From an uncultured virus (IMG/VR IMGVR_UViG_3300045902_000304) (Duplodnaviria; Heunggongvirae; Uroviricota; Caudoviricetes), in IMG/VR virus record IMGVR_UViG_3300045902_000304: a DNA stretch of 20,000 nt. One strand, 5' to 3'. A program made the translations under genes and the position numbers. Shown piece after piece: positions 4,724 through 19,999 of the stretch; positions within the stretch are counted from its first letter, which is position 1; every line of letters starts with the position of its first letter. A model generated the notes under the pieces. The model was not told the origin of the DNA and did no database searches. It saw only the letters and a program-made list of their open reading frames with translations.

Positions 4724-5680
4724 ATGACCCCAGACGTAATATACAAGCAAGAGAGAGTTAAGTACAACAGGTATGAGCAACTGCCCGAAAAGATGCGTGA
4801 TGAAATAAAGGCACGCATGGATGCTTTCGGCAAGAACGAAATAAAGCTTTTTTATATGCCGAGGCATAATAACCACAGGATGCAAGTAGAAAGAGTGGTA
4901 ACCGTCAATGGTAGCGAAGCTAAAGTACTTACATCTTATGACAGGCCGATAGGCAATATCAGGCTTCAAAGCAGGTGGATAGTAACGCTTGAAATAGAAG
5001 GTGAAATCTATAATTTCCCCTTTGGGTTTATATCAAAGACAACCCCTGACGGCAAGCCAACATGGTCTCCTCCGACAGTAAAAGGAGACGGAACATTTGA
5101 ATTGCAAGGCTCTAACCCGGAACACAGAGAAATCTACAAGGCACTATTAGTTTTCCCTTTCTTTAAGAACAGCATATTTTCTAAAGAATACATCGAGCAA
5201 ATGGGTATTCGTCAGACGATTGAGGAAATTAAGTACAACCAACAAACACAAAATGCGATAAACGAAGTGGATAGAGTGCTTGCAAGAGCTTCGTTCCTCG
5301 ACAAGCTTGCAACACAACAGCTTGATATATTGAAGCGCAAGTTTGGAGTAGATAGCCATGAAAAAGTCATAAACAATGTTAAGGCCTATATTAAGCATTA
5401 TACAGATGCAGAGTGGGATAACTTTTTATCAGAATTAGCTATTGCCACTTTTACAGAAGCTTACGAGCTTGCAGCAGGTGCGTTTATATCTATTGAAGGG
5501 AATGTGGTAACCACTAAAACAGGCAAGACATTTACTATACCAATGGATTTCAACAATATTACCAACATCAAAGACCGAATTACAGCATGGGCAACAAACG
5601 CTCAGGCAGGGAAAGAGTTTCGTACACAAATAATTAATGAGTATCTTAGCGGGCAATACAGCACTAAAAAAGCTAAGTAA
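4724..5680 (+). CDS. Conserved phage protein following the capsid gene (head-module associated, function unknown)
   Basis: 318-aa ORF, tightly packed. Its stop overlaps the next ATG (TAATG). Position matches the conserved post-capsid gene of crAss-like phages. Confidence 0.55.
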   Translation: MTPDVIYKQERVKYNRYEQLPEKMRDEIKARMDAFGKNEIKLFYMPRHNNHRMQVERVVTVNGSEAKVLTSYDRPIGNIRLQSRWIVTLEIEGEIYNFPFGFISKTTPDGKPTWSPPTVKGDGTFELQGSNPEHREIYKALLVFPFFKNSIFSKEYIEQMGIRQTIEEIKYNQQTQNAINEVDRVLARASFLDKLATQQLDILKRKFGVDSHEKVINNVKAYIKHYTDAEWDNFLSELAIATFTEAYELAAGAFISIEGNVVTTKTGKTFTIPMDFNNITNIKDRITAWATNAQAGKEFRTQIINEYLSGQYSTKKAK

Positions 5681-8194: not shown

Positions 8195-11100
8195 ATGAGT
8201 TTTCTGAACGAATTAAACGAGTACAATGGGAGAGCGGCAAGCAAGATAGCCGAACTAATTGCTCAACGCAATGAGTTAAAAGCTATAGGTGAGCCTGTGG
8301 CTGCTATTAACAAAAAGATAGCATTTATATCACAGCTTAAACAACTTGCCAATGATACAACGCTTAGCGATACACAGCGGCTTGAATACCTCACGTACTT
8401 AATAAACTATGCAGACCTGCTAAAGCAGCCTGTAGTACCTTTTACCCCCTATCAGCCAATACCCAATAACAACCCTTTATTTGCAGGGCAGCACAATGTC
8501 TTATCAGGGCTGCAAGGAGGCAATCCGGCATTGTTTGAATACTATCACGTAACCAACGCCCAAATAAGCTCATGGAACAATAAGGCGAGTTTGTCTGATA
8601 TAACCTTTAGTAACTTAGGTGGGCAGCCGTCAGACAATATTGCGCTTACCAATGTGCTTAATGGCAAGCAAAATATAATACCTAATGGGCTATCGGGGCA
8701 GTTTTATGCGTGGGATAAAACCTTTAAGTTTATCTATTGGAGTACGGTATCAGGCAAGCCCACAACGCTTGCAGGATATGGAGTTAGTGTAAATGACCCT
8801 TTGTTTGATGGTAAGTATTTGCAGCAAAGTAGTGTAGTAAACACCTATACAGTAGGCGCAAACACGCCAATATCCAATACCGACACAGTAGTGGGTATGT
8901 TTGGTAAGCTGCAAGGGCAGATAAATGCTTTGAGCGCATCGGCAGGAACAGTTACCTCAATAGGGATTGTAGGGCAGTCGGGGGTTTTTAGTATATCGAA
9001 TAGCCCAATAACAACAAATGGAAACATATCAATAGATTTCCAAAGTCAGCCCGCAAGAAATTTCTTAGCTTCTCCGACAGGAGGAAGTGGAGTTCCTACA
9101 TTTAGGACTATTACCTATGGAGACCTGCCAACGGCAATAACGCCGGGCGTTTATGGCTCTGCTACGGTAGTGCCTGTATTGACACTAAATGCACAAGGAA
9201 TAGTAACGGCTATATCTACTGCAACAATAGCGGGAGGGGGCAGTGTAACCAATGTGAGTGCGGGAAATTTGCTGCCATTATTTACTACAAACGTAAACAA
9301 TGCAAGCACTACTCCACAGATAAACTTTTCATTAGCCAATCAAAGCGCCAACTTAGTATTTGCCTCACCGGCAAGCGGCCCAGCGGGCGCTCCTTTATTC
9401 AGGGCATTAGTGCCTAATGATATACCCTCTGGTATTCCTATTTTTAAGATTTCTAATTTAACCGAAGAGTTAAACCAAAGAATTACCCGCAATGCAGTAC
9501 AATCGCAAATATTGGTAGCTAATGCAAGTAATCAGTTTGCACCTGTATTTATGAGTGGAGATGCCACTATAAATAATGTGGGTGAGATTACAATAAGTAC
9601 AGGGGCTGTTAGCTATTCAAAGATGCAGCCTACCAATGCGGGGCAGGTATTGCTTGGAAGGTTTGATGTAAATGCAGGTGAAATACAGCAAATAACTATT
9701 GGTAGCGGCTTATTTCTTGACCCAATAACAGGCATATTGACAAGTTTATTGGCCTCATTGCCTGACGGGGACTACGGAGAAATTACTGTATCTAATACAG
9801 GCTCTTTATGGATTATTAACAACAATGTAGTAGGCAACCAAAAAATCAGACAAAGTGTAGGGGCTTCTGTGATAGGCAGGGCAGCAGAGACAACGGGAGA
9901 TGTAGCCGATATAGTGGCAACTGAATATTCTGTATTACGAAAAGGCGCTGACGGCAATCCATTAGGATTTGGCTTATTACAAGCACAGCACCTTAACCCT
10001 ACGTTTTTATCAGGACAGGTATTAACAACTAACAATTTGGGTGTATTGTCATGGGTAAACCTTGCGGCAGGGGTAAGTGATGGCGACAAAGGAGACATAA
10101 CCGTATCCGGCGGAGGTGTTACATGGGCAATAAATAATCAGGCGGTTACCTATGCAAAGATACAAGATGTAGCGCCCAACTCTTTCTTAGCCAATGTAAC
10201 GGGCTCGCCTGCGGCTGTGCAAAGCATAAGTACGACAAGAATACCATTGTTTGCAACGGCAATAACAGGTACTGCTGATAACACTACATTTTTAAGAGGG
10301 GACGGCACTTGGGCTGTACCTTCCGGCGGTGGTGGTGGTGGCGGCACTAATAAAGTAACTTTTACTAACCAAACATCTGTAACAGTAACACACAACTTTG
10401 GATATGAGGTAATAATACAAGTATTTGATACAACAGGGAATAAGATAGTACCTGCCAATATACAAAACCAAAGTATAAATGCTTTTACGATAACTTTCCC
10501 AACTGCAACATCAGGATATATTATATACGGAGGATTAGGTGCAAGTGGTGGCTCGCCGGGTGGCACAAGCGGTGAAGTGCAATTCAACAATGGGGGTGCA
10601 TTTGGAGGTGTAAGCGGGGTAACGAGCGACGGAACTGCATTAACATTTAACACTGGCGCTTTATTGGGGGCTGATGCAAGAGCGGTAAGCTCGGCAGGGT
10701 TTATCATACAAAATAACGGAGCTCAAGATGTAGCTATATTTGGAGCAGGTGGTAATACCGGAGTATCTTTAATAGGAACAACCAATATAGGTTCAGGGGC
10801 TGCGGATTATTTACAAATAGCAGGAGGTACGGGTGCAACTATTGCAACAGCGCAAGGTAGTTCATCTAATATAGACATAAGATTTCAGCCAAAAGGTACA
10901 GGAGCAGTTGTAATAGGTGGTGGAACTCAAGCAACAGAGTTAAGGATATTGGAAGCAAGTGGGAATGGTAATAATTACACTGCTTTTAAAGTAGGAGCAA
11001 TGGCTGCTAATCTTGTATATACGCTACCATTGACAGGAGGTACAGGTGCTTTATTAAATGATGGGGCAGGTAATTTATCATGGGGTACTGTTGCAGCAGG

Positions 11101-15942: not shown

Positions 15943-16037
15943 TTTGATTATTACTTCGCAAATATAGGTTGCGCTTGCTTGGCTTTTATCTTTAATTGGG
16001 GATTTAAGGGTTAGTTGCTATTTCTAAAATAAACGAG

Positions 16038-16343
16038 TTAGCGGCAATTGCAAAGACGACACCAACCCATCCTAAAATTGTGTATCATTTTTTGTGTTTC
16101 CTCTTGCTCATTATGGTCAATCAAAAATGTGTATTTCTGTTTAACCCATTTATTTGTCAGCAAGTCCAAAACTTCGTATTCTGTTTCGTGTTGCATTTCC
16201 CCCATAAAAGCAATAGCATCTGTGTATGAATAAACGTATTCCTTTTCAAATTGCGACAACTGACTACCGCTAACATTGGTTTGTGGCAAGTGCGGTTGAC
16301 GTGGTTTAATCAGCCTCAGTAATTCTAATAATCTTCTGTACAT
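16038..16343 (-). CDS. Hypothetical cassette-borne protein (101 aa) whose N-terminus is encoded by the attC-like hairpin
   Basis: The ATG is preceded by A-rich aaaacaaaaccttaaaat. The ORF reads through the hairpin arm (PHLPQTNVSGS), and its TAA stop lies within the GTTAGC core at 16037. Confidence 0.7.
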   Translation of the reverse strand: MYRRLLELLRLIKPRQPHLPQTNVSGSQLSQFEKEYVYSYTDAIAFMGEMQHETEYEVLDLLTNKWVKQKYTFLIDHNEQEETQKMIHNFRMGWCRLCNCR

Positions 16344-16402
16344 ATTTTAAGGTTTTGTTTTTCAAAATCCGCACCTGACCACAAGTTAAGTGCCGTTAGC
16401 TG
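16267..16402 (+). mobile_element. Integron attC-like recombination site (136 bp)
   Basis: CCGCTAAC (16267-16274) ... GTTAGCTG (16395-16402) as outer boxes. Inner arms ttgtggcaagtgcgg (16281-16295) and ccgcacctgaccacaa (16369-16384) pair with one extra base and one mismatch, around an AT-rich central loop. Confidence 0.75.
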
Positions 16403-16407
16403 CAATA

Positions 16408-16836
16408 TTAAAGAGCAGACAGCCTTTTTAAAACATCAACAGGAATATGACCGTCAAAAGGATATTTAGCCTTTTCAACAGCAGGAATTTTAAACAAGTC
16501 CCAATCCTTTGCTTCATAGTGGTTTGATATTTGCCCAGTAGGCAGAACTGCAACTACAATAAACCACCCGCCTCCAAAGCAAAGTTCACCGTCATTGTGC
16601 TTCCAACTTTTATGAACGTCATATAGTGGTTCTTTCATATTTGGAGGCATACTTTTGCCTTCTTTAATCTTTATCTCATTAACATACCAATCTTTTGCCC
16701 ATTCGTTAAATAGTGCAGCGTTGTAAACTTTGCGAAACTCATATGGTTCTGCAAATGTATGATAGCCATTGGACGTTTGACTAATATCTTGTCCATCGTT
16801 TTTTAGGCTTTTAAGTAAGTCGTTTATTTTATTCAT
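16408..16836 (-). CDS. Conserved phage hypothetical protein, 'GYHTF...GWFIV...GQIS.H...DGH' (WDGH-type) family
   Basis: Likely start is MNKIND at 16836, since the ORF track extension to 16893 runs through the decayed attC. Motifs SNGYHTF, KSWKHNDG, GGGWFIV, LPTGQISNHY, WDLF and FDGH match a widespread phage family as I recall it. Confidence 0.7.
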   Translation of the reverse strand: MNKINDLLKSLKNDGQDISQTSNGYHTFAEPYEFRKVYNAALFNEWAKDWYVNEIKIKEGKSMPPNMKEPLYDVHKSWKHNDGELCFGGGWFIVVAVLPTGQISNHYEAKDWDLFKIPAVEKAKYPFDGHIPVDVLKRLSAL

Positions 16837-16845
16837 AAAATTGTG

Positions 16846-16954
16846 AAATACGGCAGGCAAAATGTGTTTTGTAATATAACGGTAAAAGTACAAAGTTCAT
16901 CGTTTATTGATAGTTTTGTGTTCCATATATTTTCAGGTTGACAATCGTTAGCTC
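16846..16954 (+). mobile_element. Degenerate second attC-like site
   Basis: Ends in GTTAGCTC (16947-16954). The left end aatacggcaggcaa matches the reverse complement of the preceding cassette start (aatattgcagctaa) at 10/14. Inner arms no longer pair well. Confidence 0.4.
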
Positions 16955-16968
16955 ATGAGCTTTAATCA

Positions 16969-17262
16969 CTAAGTACTAATCACGTGCATTGGAATAATTT
17001 TTTTGCCGTTACATACATCGCAGGTTTCAAATATAGCTCCTGAATAGGAAGACCCCATTATCCTGCCTGTTCCATTGCATACAGGGCAACATTGATATGG
17101 AACTACTGTAGCTTTATTTGATGTTGTCCAATCTATTATTTCAGGTTGCTTTGCGTATTCAATGACTTTATATAAATCATCTCTCATTTCATCACGGCAT
17201 TGTTCATTGTATTGTTTTGCCGGATTAGCCAACCACTTTTTTATAAATGCTTCTCTTGTCAT
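16969..17262 (-). CDS. Small protein (97 aa) with a DnaJ-type CxxCxGxG zinc-finger-like motif
   Basis: Contains CPVCNGTG...CDVCNGKK. Likely start is MTREAF at 17262, which overlaps the stop of the upstream 25-aa ORF (ATGA). Confidence 0.7.
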   Translation of the reverse strand: MTREAFIKKWLANPAKQYNEQCRDEMRDDLYKVIEYAKQPEIIDWTTSNKATVVPYQCCPVCNGTGRIMGSSYSGAIFETCDVCNGKKIIPMHVIST

Positions 17263-17336
17263 ATTCCGTGATTCATCAATTTTATGCAATTGGTAAAAAA
17301 AATAGATTCCCTGATTATCAATGTTGGCTTTATCAT
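17259..17336 (-). pseudogene. Truncated remnant of a fifth repeat-protein paralog (25-aa ORF)
   Basis: MIKPTLIIRESIFFTNCIKLMNHGI* compared with paralog N-caps MIKPRLIIRK/R. It is preceded by the same 11-nt spacer (acaatacaacc) found between paralogs B and A. Confidence 0.75.
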
Positions 17337-17347
17337 GGTTGTATTGT

Positions 17348-18061
17348 TTAAATATTAGCCCTGTTGTAGTTTTTACGGGCAAATTCGCAATTCATAATCA
17401 ACCAGCTCACATCTTCATAATCAGGCCGCAAACTCTTATAATACTCCAACATATCAATAGTTTGAGCAAATTCGCAAGTCTCAATCAACCAACGCACATC
17501 TTCATAACTTGGTTTCAACCCCTTGTAATACTCCAACATCTCCGGCGTTTGGGCATATTTGCAAGTCGTTATAAGCCATCTCACATCTTTATAACTTGGC
17601 TTTAAACCCTTGTAATACGCCAACATCTCCTGCGTTTGTGTGTATTCGCAATACCTTATCAAACAGTTTACATCTTTATAACTTGGATTTAAACTCTTGT
17701 AATATGCCAACATCTCCGGCGTTTGGGTATATTCGCAATTCCTTATCAACCAGTTTACATCTTTGTAACTTGGATTTAAACCCTTGTAATACTCCAGCAT
17801 CTCCTCCGTTTGTGCAAACTTGCAAGTCGTTATCAACCATCTAACATCTTCATAACCCGGCTGTAAACTCCTATAATACACCAACATCTCCGACGTTTGA
17901 GCACGCTTGCATTTTCTTATCAACCAACTAACATCTACATATAGCTCACCTCTCTTTTCTATCTCTTTAATTGCATTAAATTCATCCGGTAAATCAGCAT
18001 ATCTATCACAAGGAGTTTCCAGTAAGTCAGTCTTTCTAATTATCAATCTCGGCTTTTTCAT
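17348..18061 (-). CDS. 29-aa repeat protein, paralog A (N-cap 58 + 5 x 29 + C-cap 34 aa)
   Basis: Repeat consensus MLEYYKSLNPSYKDVSWLIxxCEFAQTxE; lengths sum to 237 aa. Confidence 0.92.
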   Translation of the reverse strand: MKKPRLIIRKTDLLETPCDRYADLPDEFNAIKEIEKRGELYVDVSWLIRKCKRAQTSEMLVYYRSLQPGYEDVRWLITTCKFAQTEEMLEYYKGLNPSYKDVNWLIRNCEYTQTPEMLAYYKSLNPSYKDVNCLIRYCEYTQTQEMLAYYKGLKPSYKDVRWLITTCKYAQTPEMLEYYKGLKPSYEDVRWLIETCEFAQTIDMLEYYKSLRPDYEDVSWLIMNCEFARKNYNRANI

Positions 18062-18072
18062 GGTTGTATTGT

Positions 18073-18525
18073 TTAAATATTAATCTTGTTGTAGTTTTCA
18101 CGGACAAAATCACAAGTCTCAATAAGCCAGCTCACATCTTTATCATCCGGGGTTAAACTCCTATAATACTCCAGCATTTCAACGGTTTGTGCAAATTCGC
18201 AATGCCTTATCAGCCAGTTCACATCTTCATAATCTGGATTTAACCCCATATAATACTCCAGCGTCTCCGATGTTTGTGCAAATTTGCAAGTCGCAATCAG
18301 CCAGCTCACATTTTCGTAATCCGGGTTCAACCCCTTGTAATACTCAAACATTTCCTGCGTCTGTGCAATTTTGCAATGCTTTATCAGCCAGCTTACGTCA
18401 TCATACCTATTACCACGCTTCTCTATCTCGGCAACTACATCAAACTCATTAGGTAAATCAGCATATCTATCACAAGGTTTATCCAGTAAGTCAGTCTTTC
18501 TGATTATCAATCTCGGCTTTATCAT
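18073..18525 (-). CDS. 29-aa repeat protein, paralog B (58 + 2 x 29 + 34 aa)
   Basis: Same caps and repeat; 150 aa. Confidence 0.92.
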   Translation of the reverse strand: MIKPRLIIRKTDLLDKPCDRYADLPNEFDVVAEIEKRGNRYDDVSWLIKHCKIAQTQEMFEYYKGLNPDYENVSWLIATCKFAQTSETLEYYMGLNPDYEDVNWLIRHCEFAQTVEMLEYYRSLTPDDKDVSWLIETCDFVRENYNKINI

Positions 18526-18539
18526 GGTCTTTCTATTGT

Positions 18540-19253
18540 TTAAATGCTAACCTTGTTGTAGTTTTCACGGACAAATGTGCAATTCTTTATCAGCCAATTC
18601 ACATTTTTATAACTCGGCTTTAAACTCTTGTAATACGCCAACATATCAGTAATTTGGGCATATTTGCAAAACCTTATCAGTGAACTCACATCTTTATAGC
18701 TCGGATTCAAACTCTTGTAATACTCCAACATTCCCAAAGTCTGTGCAAACTCACAATACCTAATCAGCCAACTCACATCTACATAGCTCGGATTCAAACT
18801 CTTGTAATACTCTATCATCTCCGTAGTTTGAGCAAACTCGCACTCCCTAATAAGCCAACTTACATCTACATAGCTCGGCTTTAAACTCTTGTAATACTCC
18901 AACATCTTTGTGGTCTGTGCTAACTCGCACTCCCTAATAAGCAAACTCACATCTCCATAGTCAGGATTCAAACTCTTGTAATATTCCAGCATCTTTGTGG
19001 TCTGTGCAAACTCGCAATTCCTAATCAGCCAACTAACATCTACATAATCCGGCTTTAAACTCTTGTAATACTCCAGCATTCCCTTAGTCTGTGCTAACTC
19101 GCAATACCTAATAAACCAGTTGACATCCGCATACTTATTACCTCTATTCTCTATCTCTTCAACTACATCAAACTCTTCCGGTAAATCAGCATATCTGTCG
19201 CAAAGCTTTTTGGGCAAGTCGCTTCTCCTGATTATTAATCTTGGTTTTATCAT
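18540..19253 (-). CDS. 29-aa repeat protein, paralog C (58 + 5 x 29 + 34 aa)
   Basis: Same caps and repeat; 237 aa. Confidence 0.92.
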   Translation of the reverse strand: MIKPRLIIRRSDLPKKLCDRYADLPEEFDVVEEIENRGNKYADVNWFIRYCELAQTKGMLEYYKSLKPDYVDVSWLIRNCEFAQTTKMLEYYKSLNPDYGDVSLLIRECELAQTTKMLEYYKSLKPSYVDVSWLIRECEFAQTTEMIEYYKSLNPSYVDVSWLIRYCEFAQTLGMLEYYKSLNPSYKDVSSLIRFCKYAQITDMLAYYKSLKPSYKNVNWLIKNCTFVRENYNKVSI

Positions 19254-19264
19254 TGTTGTATTCT

Positions 19265-19999
19265 TTAAATATTAACCTTGTTATAGTTCTCACGGACAAA
19301 CGTGCAATTCTTTATCAGCCAATTCACATTGTTATCATCCGGTTTCAACCTTTTGTAATACGCCAACATCTCCTTTGTTTGAGCATATTTGCAATCTAAA
19401 ATCAGCCAACTCACATCTTTATAACCCGGCTGCAAACTCTTATAATACTCCAACATCTCCTTTGTTTTAGCATATCTGCAATCTAAAATCAGCCAGCTAA
19501 CATCTTTATAATCTGGCTGCAAACTCTTATAATACTCCAGCATCTCCGGCCTCTGTGCAAATTCGCAATTCGTTATTAGCCATCTTACATCTTTATAACT
19601 CGGCTGCAAACTCTTGTAATACTCCAACATCTCTGACGTTTGTGCATATTTGCAAAAACTTATCAACCAGTTCACATCTTCATAACTCGGGTTCAACCCC
19701 TTGTAATACCCCAACATCTCCGGCGTTTGGGTATATTCACAATTCCTTATCAACCAGTTTACATCTTTATAACTTGGCTTTAAACCCTTGTAATACTCCA
19801 ACATTTCCTCAGTCTGTGCAAACTTGCAAAAACGTATCAGACTGTTCACATTTTCATAACTTGGATTTAACCCCTTGTAAAACGCCAACATCTCATCCGT
19901 CTGTGCAAACTTGCAATTCGTTATCAGCCATCCCGCATCTTCATAATCTGGTTTCAGACTTTTGTAAAACGCCAACATCTCATCCGTCTGTGCAAACTT
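19265..19999 (-). CDS. 29-aa repeat protein, paralog D (at least 7 x 29 + C-cap; 5'-truncated by the window edge)
   Basis: The frame is open to the window end (KFAQTDE precedes the ORF-track Met at 19978). The N-cap is not in the window. Confidence 0.9.
   Translation of the reverse strand, partial: KFAQTDEMLAFYKSLKPDYEDAGWLITNCKFAQTDEMLAFYKGLNPSYENVNSLIRFCKFAQTEEMLEYYKGLKPSYKDVNWLIRNCEYTQTPEMLGYYKGLNPSYEDVNWLISFCKYAQTSEMLEYYKSLQPSYKDVRWLITNCEFAQRPEMLEYYKSLQPDYKDVSWLILDCRYAKTKEMLEYYKSLQPGYKDVSWLILDCKYAQTKEMLAYYKRLKPDDNNVNWLIKNCTFVRENYNKVNI

Follow-up and report, generated by a model that had tools for sequence, protein, structure and literature searches.

A hairpin site holding the start codon of a small phage gene: a probable head-body junction of an integron-like cassette system

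The hairpin site and its open reading frame

The DNA analysed (the window) was a 20,000-nucleotide (nt) piece of an uncultured tailed phage (Caudoviricetes; IMG/VR record IMGVR_UViG_3300045902_000304). The feature under study lies on the minus strand and comprises a small open reading frame (ORF), P0001, and a 132-nt hairpin site resembling an integron attC site, in whose loop the ORF begins. The hairpin site is called the M head, the first codons read from it the leader, and the part of the gene behind it the body. The following features were placed, with positions given in the window.

16038..16343, minus strand: whole ORF P0001, 101 amino acids (aa), translated as MYRRLLELLRLIKPRQPHLPQTNVSGS...NCR-stop
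16269..16400, minus strand: M head, 132-nt hairpin site from GCTAAC to GTTAGC; conservation ends at both boxes
16395..16400, minus strand: 5' core box GCTAAC, R''-like; TAAC conservation 0.91-1.00
16369..16384, minus strand: 5' arm TTGTGG-(T)-CAGGTGCGG, with an extrahelical T at 16378; placed by folding
16281..16295, minus strand: 3' arm CCGCACTTG-CCACAA, coding for P-H-L-P-Q; invariant in 11 of 11 sequences
16269..16274, minus strand: 3' core box GTTAGC, R'-like, and head/body junction; identity falls after GTT(A)
16263..16343, minus strand: start codon (16343-16341) and 27-codon leader MYRRLLELLRLIKPRQPHLPQTNVSGS; on 41 proteins of 19 body families
16263..16274, minus strand: 5' terminal inverted repeat of the body, GTTAGCGGTAGT, coding for V-S-G-S; pairs with 16048-16037
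16037..16048, minus strand: 3' terminal inverted repeat of the body, ATTGCCGCTAAC, coding for N-C-R-stop; TAA at 16040-16038
16056..16250, minus strand: conserved body core F32-R96; from an alignment with 24 invariant columns

Measured from core to core (TAAC at 16398-16395 to GTTA at 16274-16271), the M head is 128 nt long. The pairing of its arms includes one G.T wobble, and the position of the bulge in the 5' arm recurs in other heads with different stem sequences. The original prediction, made from the letters of the window, had described a gene that starts in a hairpin loop, reads through the arm and stops in a core. On re-examination, the ATG and the A-rich stretch lay in the loop between the arms (16384-16369 and 16295-16281), the re-derived translation of the arm and box codons was PHLPQTNVSGS (GTT AGC GGT read as V S G), and the TAA stop fell inside GCTAAC at 16042-16037. 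The two cassette ends (GTTAGCGGTAGT / ATTGCCGCTAAC) pair at all 12 positions, 10 by Watson-Crick and 2 by G.T pairs.

The fold energy of the window hairpin was not significant (z -1.16 on the plus strand, -1.61 on the minus strand), and the GTTAGC hexamer was not enriched in the window (15 occurrences vs 10.9 expected). The window copy carries TTAA in place of the consensus TTGG at 16388-16385, and its fold energy is weak because these two substitutions weaken the core-proximal stem. A known RNA family was rejected as an identity for the hairpin, the sole Rfam match being a chance one to mir-286 (E 0.32). No tRNA or tmRNA fitting the element was found.

Conservation of the M head as DNA

The 132-nt element was 83-92% identical across 11 viral loci, in which the neighbouring genes were mostly unrelated. 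A 24-mer spanning eight codons of the 3' arm was invariant in all 11 sequences, third codon positions included, and the stem of one locus (L001) carried a compensatory change (GGTGgGG / CCcCAC). The exact 24-mer was found once each in 9 viral contigs and in 29 metagenome contigs, one of which held two copies; none was found in representative bacterial or archaeal genomes. Conservation starts at TAAC and stops at GTT(A) (23 unique upstream and 25 unique downstream contexts), and the 3 nt preceding TAAC were conserved at only 0.39-0.43 in the 23 upstream contexts. Part of the 3' arm is invariant in this context set because of how the set was collected. The DNA ahead of the ATG is conserved as well, and some gene calls read through it from upstream with the same residues.

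The metagenome contig with two copies (L045) carries them 591 nt apart, as a tandem duplication of the M head together with the same 36-aa zinc-ribbon-like body; the context of the 5' arm changes in the second copy. A decayed head was seen in front of a P0001 homolog at L002 2860-3260, with GTTA changed to GTAA and a degraded 5' arm. No TAAC follows the stop there, yet the leader is still in frame.

One leader on many bodies

A protein search with P0001 returned 17 true homologs and 35 small proteins that matched in the leader region, at up to 96% identity over little beyond the N-terminal quarter to half of the query. By regular expression and BLASTP clustering, the leader was assigned to 41 of 53 proteins in 19 body families. 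These counts are lower bounds, the search reaching only proteins that share 5-residue words. Other phages thus have at least 19 unrelated small proteins with this start codon and these first 24-27 codons, and in the 19 non-homologous families leader and body are fused at the GTT. At the DNA level, 39 occurrences of the M head were collected, with 13 distinct pairs of body ends. The P0001 body family carries at least four leader types (at least three besides M), and three of its members (P0016-18) have their own Met and no leader.

Two outcomes had been named as fatal to the original prediction: confinement of the leader to homologs of one protein, and a true start at an internal Met downstream of the hairpin. 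The leader was found on 19 unrelated body families. The conserved body begins at F32, before the first internal Met (M47), and the start in the window must therefore lie in the hairpin.

Leader codons 2-16 contained 9 synonymous and 25 non-synonymous variant codons among 28 unique M copies, a synonymous fraction of 0.26 vs 0.24 expected. Variability at codon positions 1, 2 and 3 was 0.148, 0.098 and 0.098, with no third-position excess, and leader variability equalled that of the 40 nt ahead of the ATG. None of the 28 copies had an in-frame stop, and both other frames contained stops. Because there is no amino-acid selection on the leader and only the frame is kept open, the peptide probably has no function of its own and would serve as a translation-start adaptor.

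The AlphaFold model of P0001 had a mean pLDDT of 65, with modest confidence in the body, a predicted amphipathic helix at residues 2-12 and a predicted disordered linker at 13-26. The body matched no Pfam or PHROG family and no Atlas look-alike, and the model gave no Foldseek match to the PDB at E <= 0.001. RTP1_C1 was considered as an identity for the body and rejected (Pfam match sub-threshold, E 0.0013).

Complementary cassette ends

Past the GTTA at one site, the first 8-12 nt are reverse-complementary to the bases just ahead of the TAAC at the next, and each body is therefore closed by a cassette-specific inverted repeat. A core followed the stop in 37 of the 39 M-head occurrences, and in 34 of these 37 the ends paired at 9-11 Watson-Crick and 1-2 G.T positions of 12. 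The ends in L050 paired at 7+1 positions, and in L004 the core was mutated. For L031 and L044 the script had anchored on the stop codon and not on the true core; the continuation from the true core fits. An independent set of 137 unique adjacent element pairs gave 5.35 of 8 positions pairing with the flank of the next element. As controls, pairing of an element with its own flank reached 2.81 of 8, and pairing with permuted flanks 2.77 (maximum 3.03 in 200 permutations).

Body starts of the form V-[S/I/M/R]-x-S covary with the tails NCR-stop, NYR-stop, NDH-stop and ..DV-stop. The protein pattern named in the original prediction (xxVSGS ... [CY]R-stop) was real and occurred on non-homologous bodies, because the 12-nt inverted cassette ends encode the first and last residues. 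Upstream ORFs end in TAAC or exactly 12 nt ahead of it; the -12 offset was seen in 9 of 34 and in 29 of 203 elements.

Exchange at the two cores

The genes ahead of the M head are unrelated from one occurrence to another, and so are the bodies after it. Behind the P0001-type body, L001 and a contig of run X4 share one hairpin type, whereas the window continues with backbone sequence, the break after the body lying exactly at 16037. Depth over the head was 122 vs 19 over the flanks in run X1, and 66 vs 3-5 in X2/X3, and contigs left the window at 16263 and 16272 on one side of the head, at 16385, 16398 and 16399 on the other, and at 16037; these same-sample depths and breaks come from assembled contigs only, and X1 may be the source of the window. 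Sequence comparison placed the junction at GTT(A), within about 2 nt.

These comparisons show heads and bodies re-assorted at the TAAC and GTT(A) cores, with stems and ends that covary. As judged from the same alignments, both cores act as junctions, which goes beyond the one-crossover integron model. Strict integron logic, under which each hairpin and the body in front of it move together in every case, was not supported, the bodies separating from hairpins on both sides.

Two reciprocal chimeric heads were observed in L025, at 5433-5559 and about 9270-9400, 3.8 kb apart and with the breakpoint in the loop. One joins the M 5' arm to another 3' arm, and the other joins the 5' arm of that head to the M 3' arm. 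A circle that integrated by crossing over within the loop would leave such a pattern, and some exchange therefore takes place there as well, through either a Campbell-like or a homologous route.

A family of hairpin sites

Sites were scanned for as TAAC...GTTA pairs with pairable flanks at a cut-off of -13 kcal/mol. In four related viral loci, a stretch of 3-6 kb contained 6-8 coding-strand hairpins of this kind each time (shuffles 0), and the 20-kb window held one intact site only. Stem sequences differ wholly between sites, and the build is shared (3-4 extra bases after TAAC, a fixed C.A position, a bulged T and G.T wobbles); the stems therefore covary. The genes between the array sites encode DNA methyltransferases, Dam, a DUF3307 protein, a DnaJ-domain protein and small zinc-ribbon proteins. 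The M head was also considered as an attI-like single entry site, and this was rejected, its position being mid-array (second of six in L022, third in L023).

The attC likeness of the hairpin, as first proposed, held for the architecture: the sites have AAC/GTT cores, two pairs of imperfect inverted repeats with fixed mismatches, extrahelical bases including a conserved bulged T, and a variable loop, and are 49-139 nt long. It did not hold for identity. The sites are not canonical attC sites, and their partner is Xer-like and not an IntI.

The coding strand was the more stable in 196 of 203 unique array elements, with 154 G.T vs 19 A.C pairs, a result that describes folding preference only. 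Of the G.T pairs, 103 occupy a single fixed position in the helix formed by the cassette ends, and the window has a G.T there too.

Site lengths were bimodal, at about 80-99 nt and about 110-139 nt. An in-loop ATG opening an ORF of at least 30 codons past GTTA was present in 70 of 120 long-class sites, and an in-loop start in 1 of 80 short-class sites; dual coding of the kind found in the window is therefore a regular feature of long-class sites. The long-class leaders were mostly 15-28 codons long, and the G of GTTA fell in codon phases 1, 3 and 2 in the ratio 50 : 14 : 6.

The array-linked recombinase

At a related locus, a gene for a 268-aa tyrosine recombinase lies about 320 nt past the last hairpin. 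Its best family was NCBIfam XerA_Arch (184 bits, below the 220-bit cut-off). It scored 151 bits, in two stretches, against the integron-integrase model TIGR02249 (cut-off 265). XerA of Pyrococcus abyssi (4a8e) was aligned over the full length (E 1.4e-37), and IntI4 (2a3v) over residues 21-180 only. By these comparisons the array-linked enzyme is Xer-like and, judged by the defining insertion, not an IntI.

A search of viral contigs found 96 relatives of the recombinase, of which 80 loci were kept. Upstream of the 80 genes lay 248 hairpins (0.72 per kb), nearly all co-oriented; downstream lay 4 (0.0096 per kb; shuffles 4). At least one upstream hairpin was present in 66 loci, and 10 of the remaining 14 had less than 1.5 kb of upstream sequence. 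In the contigs compared, complete systems consist of co-oriented arrays that end at an Xer-like tyrosine recombinase gene.

Relatives in representative bacterial and archaeal genomes were at most 48% identical, and few such loci had hairpins; near bacterial recombinases of at most 35% identity the density was 0.033 per kb. Three contigs of bacterial metagenome-assembled genomes (L175, L194 and L165) carry 3-4 long TAAC...GTTA hairpins beside recombinases of about 30% identity. In all likelihood these loci are ordinary integron arrays, and classical attC sites are thus among those that the scan detects. The cultured relatives are in Cellulophaga phage Ingeline and Polaribacter phages Freya and Leef (31-40% identity). 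No TAAC...GTTA hairpins were found beside the Freya or Ingeline integrases. The nearest cellular and cultured relatives are Bacteroidota-type.

Within the stretches compared, Polaribacter phages Freya_10 and Freya_1 (L135-L137) resemble each other only from 67 nt ahead of the integrase gene onwards. Upstream of the integrase, some 4 kb with 10 small genes in Freya_10 is unrelated to the sequence in Freya_1.

Comparison with known systems

The phage sites share with integrons the form of the hairpins (a 5' end in ...AAC, a 3' end in GTT..., extrahelical bases and variable loops) and the setting of unrelated small genes between co-oriented sites with a tyrosine recombinase alongside. As a circular cassette would lead one to expect, the sequence following GTT in each cassette is complementary to that preceding AAC at its other end, and many stop codons fall within the AAC core. 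The closest integron type is the sedentary chromosomal one, with near-identical attC sites. In contrast, the phage recombinase (268 aa, Xer-like) lacks the insertion specific to IntI, and the arrays lie upstream of its gene and co-oriented with it, whereas an integron intI gene is divergent with attI and Pc at its end. The coding (top) strand of the phage sites folds better, whereas integrons use the bottom strand. Phage cassette ends are inverted repeats of 12-16 nt, bodies separate from hairpins on both sides, long sites hold the start codon and leader of the next gene, and no attI was identified at the phage arrays.

Among known starts placed in recombination sites, attI1 contains a translation initiation region and the short ORFs ORF-11, ORF-17 and ORF-18, which span the crossover (PMC8876359); fused cassettes of class 1 integrons are a related case. 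As described in the accessible part of that article, these ORFs aid cassettes without start signals, the sequence of the peptide matters little, and the cassette core may provide the stop codons. The M head is alike in that an ORF spans the crossover point, its ATG lying in the loop and its frame crossing GTT. In attI1, as far as described there, the ORF terminates and acts by translational coupling at a single site; the phage ORF continues in frame, as a true fusion, and the start module is present in many attC-like sites.

Judged from the accessible text of Qi et al. 2023 (PMC9892861), only fragments of the system are in print so far, as clusters of attC sites lacking integrases (CALINs) in phages. 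That text reports 17 phage CALINs found with generic attC detectors, and describes virulent phages, Polaribacter phage P12002L among them, in which attC-type sites lie around DNA methyltransferase cassettes. It makes no mention, in the accessible part, of the site family, of covarying cassette ends or of an Xer-like partner, and the term 'start codon' is absent from its main text. A CALIN consists of at least two clustered attC sites, whereas the window holds one intact site, a core-only end (16037-16042) and a weak remnant. The primer sequence given there for P12002L_attC1 equals a 49-nt short-class element in the P12002L record, of the same size and with the same loop (TCGTTTTAATG) as L025 8433-8481. 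The attC2 site of this phage, which worked in that study by the account accessible, equals an opposite-strand prediction ending in a cassette-end core. Short-class sites were seen in P12002L (L139) between methyltransferase genes on the minus strand, at about 29990-30060, 30900-30960 and 38030-38090.

The closest analogue outside integrons is the promoter early stem-loop (PeSL) of T4-type phages, a conserved intergenic stem-loop flanking variable accessory genes in hyperplastic regions. PeSLs are thought to mediate modular shuffling (PMC2839356, PMC4122927). In the accessible text of these articles they differ from the phage sites in carrying promoter-terminator motifs, in relying on homologous recombination and in encoding no protein leader, and neither a recombinase nor covarying cassette ends are among the features reported there. 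A sigma-70-type scan gave 3 promoter matches vs 3.6 expected and 1 terminator match, on the other strand, vs 0.8 expected, with a consensus that may not suit the host. Xer/dif systems provide the best solved relative of the array-linked recombinase, XerA (4a8e), but the phage gene lies at cassette arrays and not at a chromosome dimer-resolution site. No description of the site family was found in the open full text searched, subscription journals being outside that coverage.

Interpretation and alternatives

The feature in the window is probably the point at which a head meets a body in an integron-like gene-cassette system carried by uncultured phages. The M head is one member of a large TAAC...GTTA hairpin family, and its long loop holds an A-rich region that would serve translation initiation, the ATG, and some 24 codons whose frame stays open across the 3' arm and the GTT core. 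The body has no start codon of its own and is closed by 12-nt inverted ends (GTTA-N8 ... N8'-TAAC), which dictate its first (VSGS) and last (NCR-stop) residues. The Xer-like recombinase of the arrays may exchange the cassettes on folded single-stranded DNA of the coding strand, and the head would supply the translation start signals from which a start-less captured body is expressed. The leader peptide would be a passenger, like the attI1 products of ORF-11/ORF-18 but fused in frame. The original prediction had left two options. The data support the second, with the minus strand as top strand and every site lending its start and a leader, in frame, to whichever cassette comes next: one leader stands on 19 body families, and one body behind many leaders. 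The option of an inverted self-contained cassette was not supported.

Several observations weigh against this reading. Every exchange is inferred from comparison, and no recombination event, circle or empty site has been seen; translation of the leader from the in-loop ATG is likewise unproven. The FKEWYLEF body, in 15 occurrences, has 10 different four-base continuations after TAAC, and bodies part from both the upstream and the downstream hairpin, which does not fit a strict one-crossover-per-site integron model. The loop breakpoints in L025 suggest that ordinary homologous recombination operates too, at the least as a second route. None of the 19 ORFs of the 20-kb window matched a recombinase family in a family search, and of five related viral records searched whole (24-57% complete) one had a tyrosine recombinase. 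The G.T wobbles of the coding strand are as compatible with a structured RNA as with folded top-strand DNA. By the accessible account of PMC9892861, P12002L_attC1 is the only site there without a verified IntI1 junction.

The strongest competitor, though an unlikely one, takes the hairpins for PeSL-like regulatory linkers: mobile mRNA elements that would control processing, stability or translation, with the genes shuffled during co-infection by ordinary homologous recombination inside the conserved linkers and no dedicated enzyme. It would explain why the wobbles fall on the transcribed strand (154 G.T vs 19 A.C) and why the coding strand is the stabler in 196 of 203 elements. The L025 chimeras break in the conserved pre-ATG loop, most site-bearing records and the window are without a recombinase, the M head (128 nt, 83-92% identity) suffices for homologous recombination, and PeSL cassettes are a published precedent (PMC2839356, PMC4122927, in their accessible text). 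Homologous recombination within the head, however, cannot produce junctions where homology breaks off precisely at GTT(A) and TAAC and gives way to unrelated sequence, and it leaves the covarying, cassette-specific inverted ends of 12-16 nt unexplained. Nor does it account for the polar association with the recombinase (248 hairpins upstream vs 4 downstream), and sigma-70-type promoter and terminator signals were not enriched, with the reservation on the consensus given above.

A functional N-terminal peptide (a targeting or packaging signal, or a leader of the type found in ribosomally synthesized and post-translationally modified peptides), with the DNA hairpin incidental, is very improbable. 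The predicted amphipathic helix at 2-12 followed by a disordered linker, the open frame (0 of 28 copies with stops) and the presence of the leader on many small proteins would suit it, and the internal proteins of T4 are a precedent for shared N-terminal signals on unrelated phage proteins. Against it, purifying selection on the leader amino acids was absent (0.26 vs 0.24), conservation reaches 40 nt ahead of the ATG and into the 5' arm, and synonymous sites in the 3' arm are invariant; moreover, leaderless body homologs exist (P0016-18), and other heads encode unrelated leaders. Least credible of all is a chance inverted repeat near an ordinary small gene whose start was set too far upstream, as the fold energy and the unenriched hexamer in the window might suggest. 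It is refuted by the occurrence of the element in 11 viral loci and of the exact 24-mer in 29 metagenome contigs; in addition, the stems covary and the conserved body begins at F32, ahead of M47.

Should the cassette reading be true, a site-specific recombination site would double as a translation-start module, so that start-less captured DNA is expressed at once. The integron principle would extend to phages, to an Xer-like enzyme and to the coding strand. Phage accessory genes (many DNA methyltransferases and small zinc-ribbon proteins in the related arrays) would be reshuffled like cassettes, with the head as a compact, portable expression adaptor, and the arrays would offer a concrete case for the open question of how cassettes and sites are built. 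Identical N-termini and ..NCR/..NDR C-terminal tails on small phage proteins reflect the site and not homology, and such site-derived termini can yield false protein families and mis-set gene starts.

A broader proposal is put forward more tentatively, with doubt slightly outweighing belief: phages of Bacteroidota-type hosts may possess a recombinase-driven system akin to exon shuffling, in which a small Xer-like enzyme plugs start-less bodies, each closed by its own inverted ends, behind portable heads. There would be two classes of folded coding-strand hairpin, one of which provides the translation start and a leader in a preferred phase. Any captured fragment would then be expressed as a protein, and unrelated accessory or anti-defence proteins would come to share identical N-termini.

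Neighbouring genes in the window

In the window a plus-strand structural block, with a portal protein (phrog_6547) and tail-fibre-like proteins by PHROG comparison, abuts a minus-strand block of small genes. All that the window holds of the system is one orphan cassette, located where the minus-strand block ends. P0001 had no relatives in named phage records, and the only matches of the window DNA to these records were two short ones, both inside the WDGH gene listed below. Two further features were placed upstream of the M head.

16408..16836, minus strand: upstream WDGH-domain gene (PF25311, E 1.2e-30)
16876..16952, minus strand: possible decayed site GCTAAC ... CGTTAT, 76 nt; core pairing only, below the -13 kcal/mol cut-off

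The TAA stop of the WDGH gene (16410-16408) lies exactly 12 nt ahead of the TAAC of the M head. The GCTAAC and weak TAAC...GTTA remnant at 16876-16952 come after a minus-strand gene (16969-17382) for a small protein with a CxxC-rich C-terminus, which gave weak, sub-threshold matches to Anti-TRAP and the DnaJ zinc finger. Beyond it, at 17348-19999 on the minus strand, are four neighbouring paralogous genes (237, 150, 237 and at least 237 aa). These were assigned to no confident Pfam family, and consist of tandem 87-nt (29-aa) repeats in 17-23 copies.

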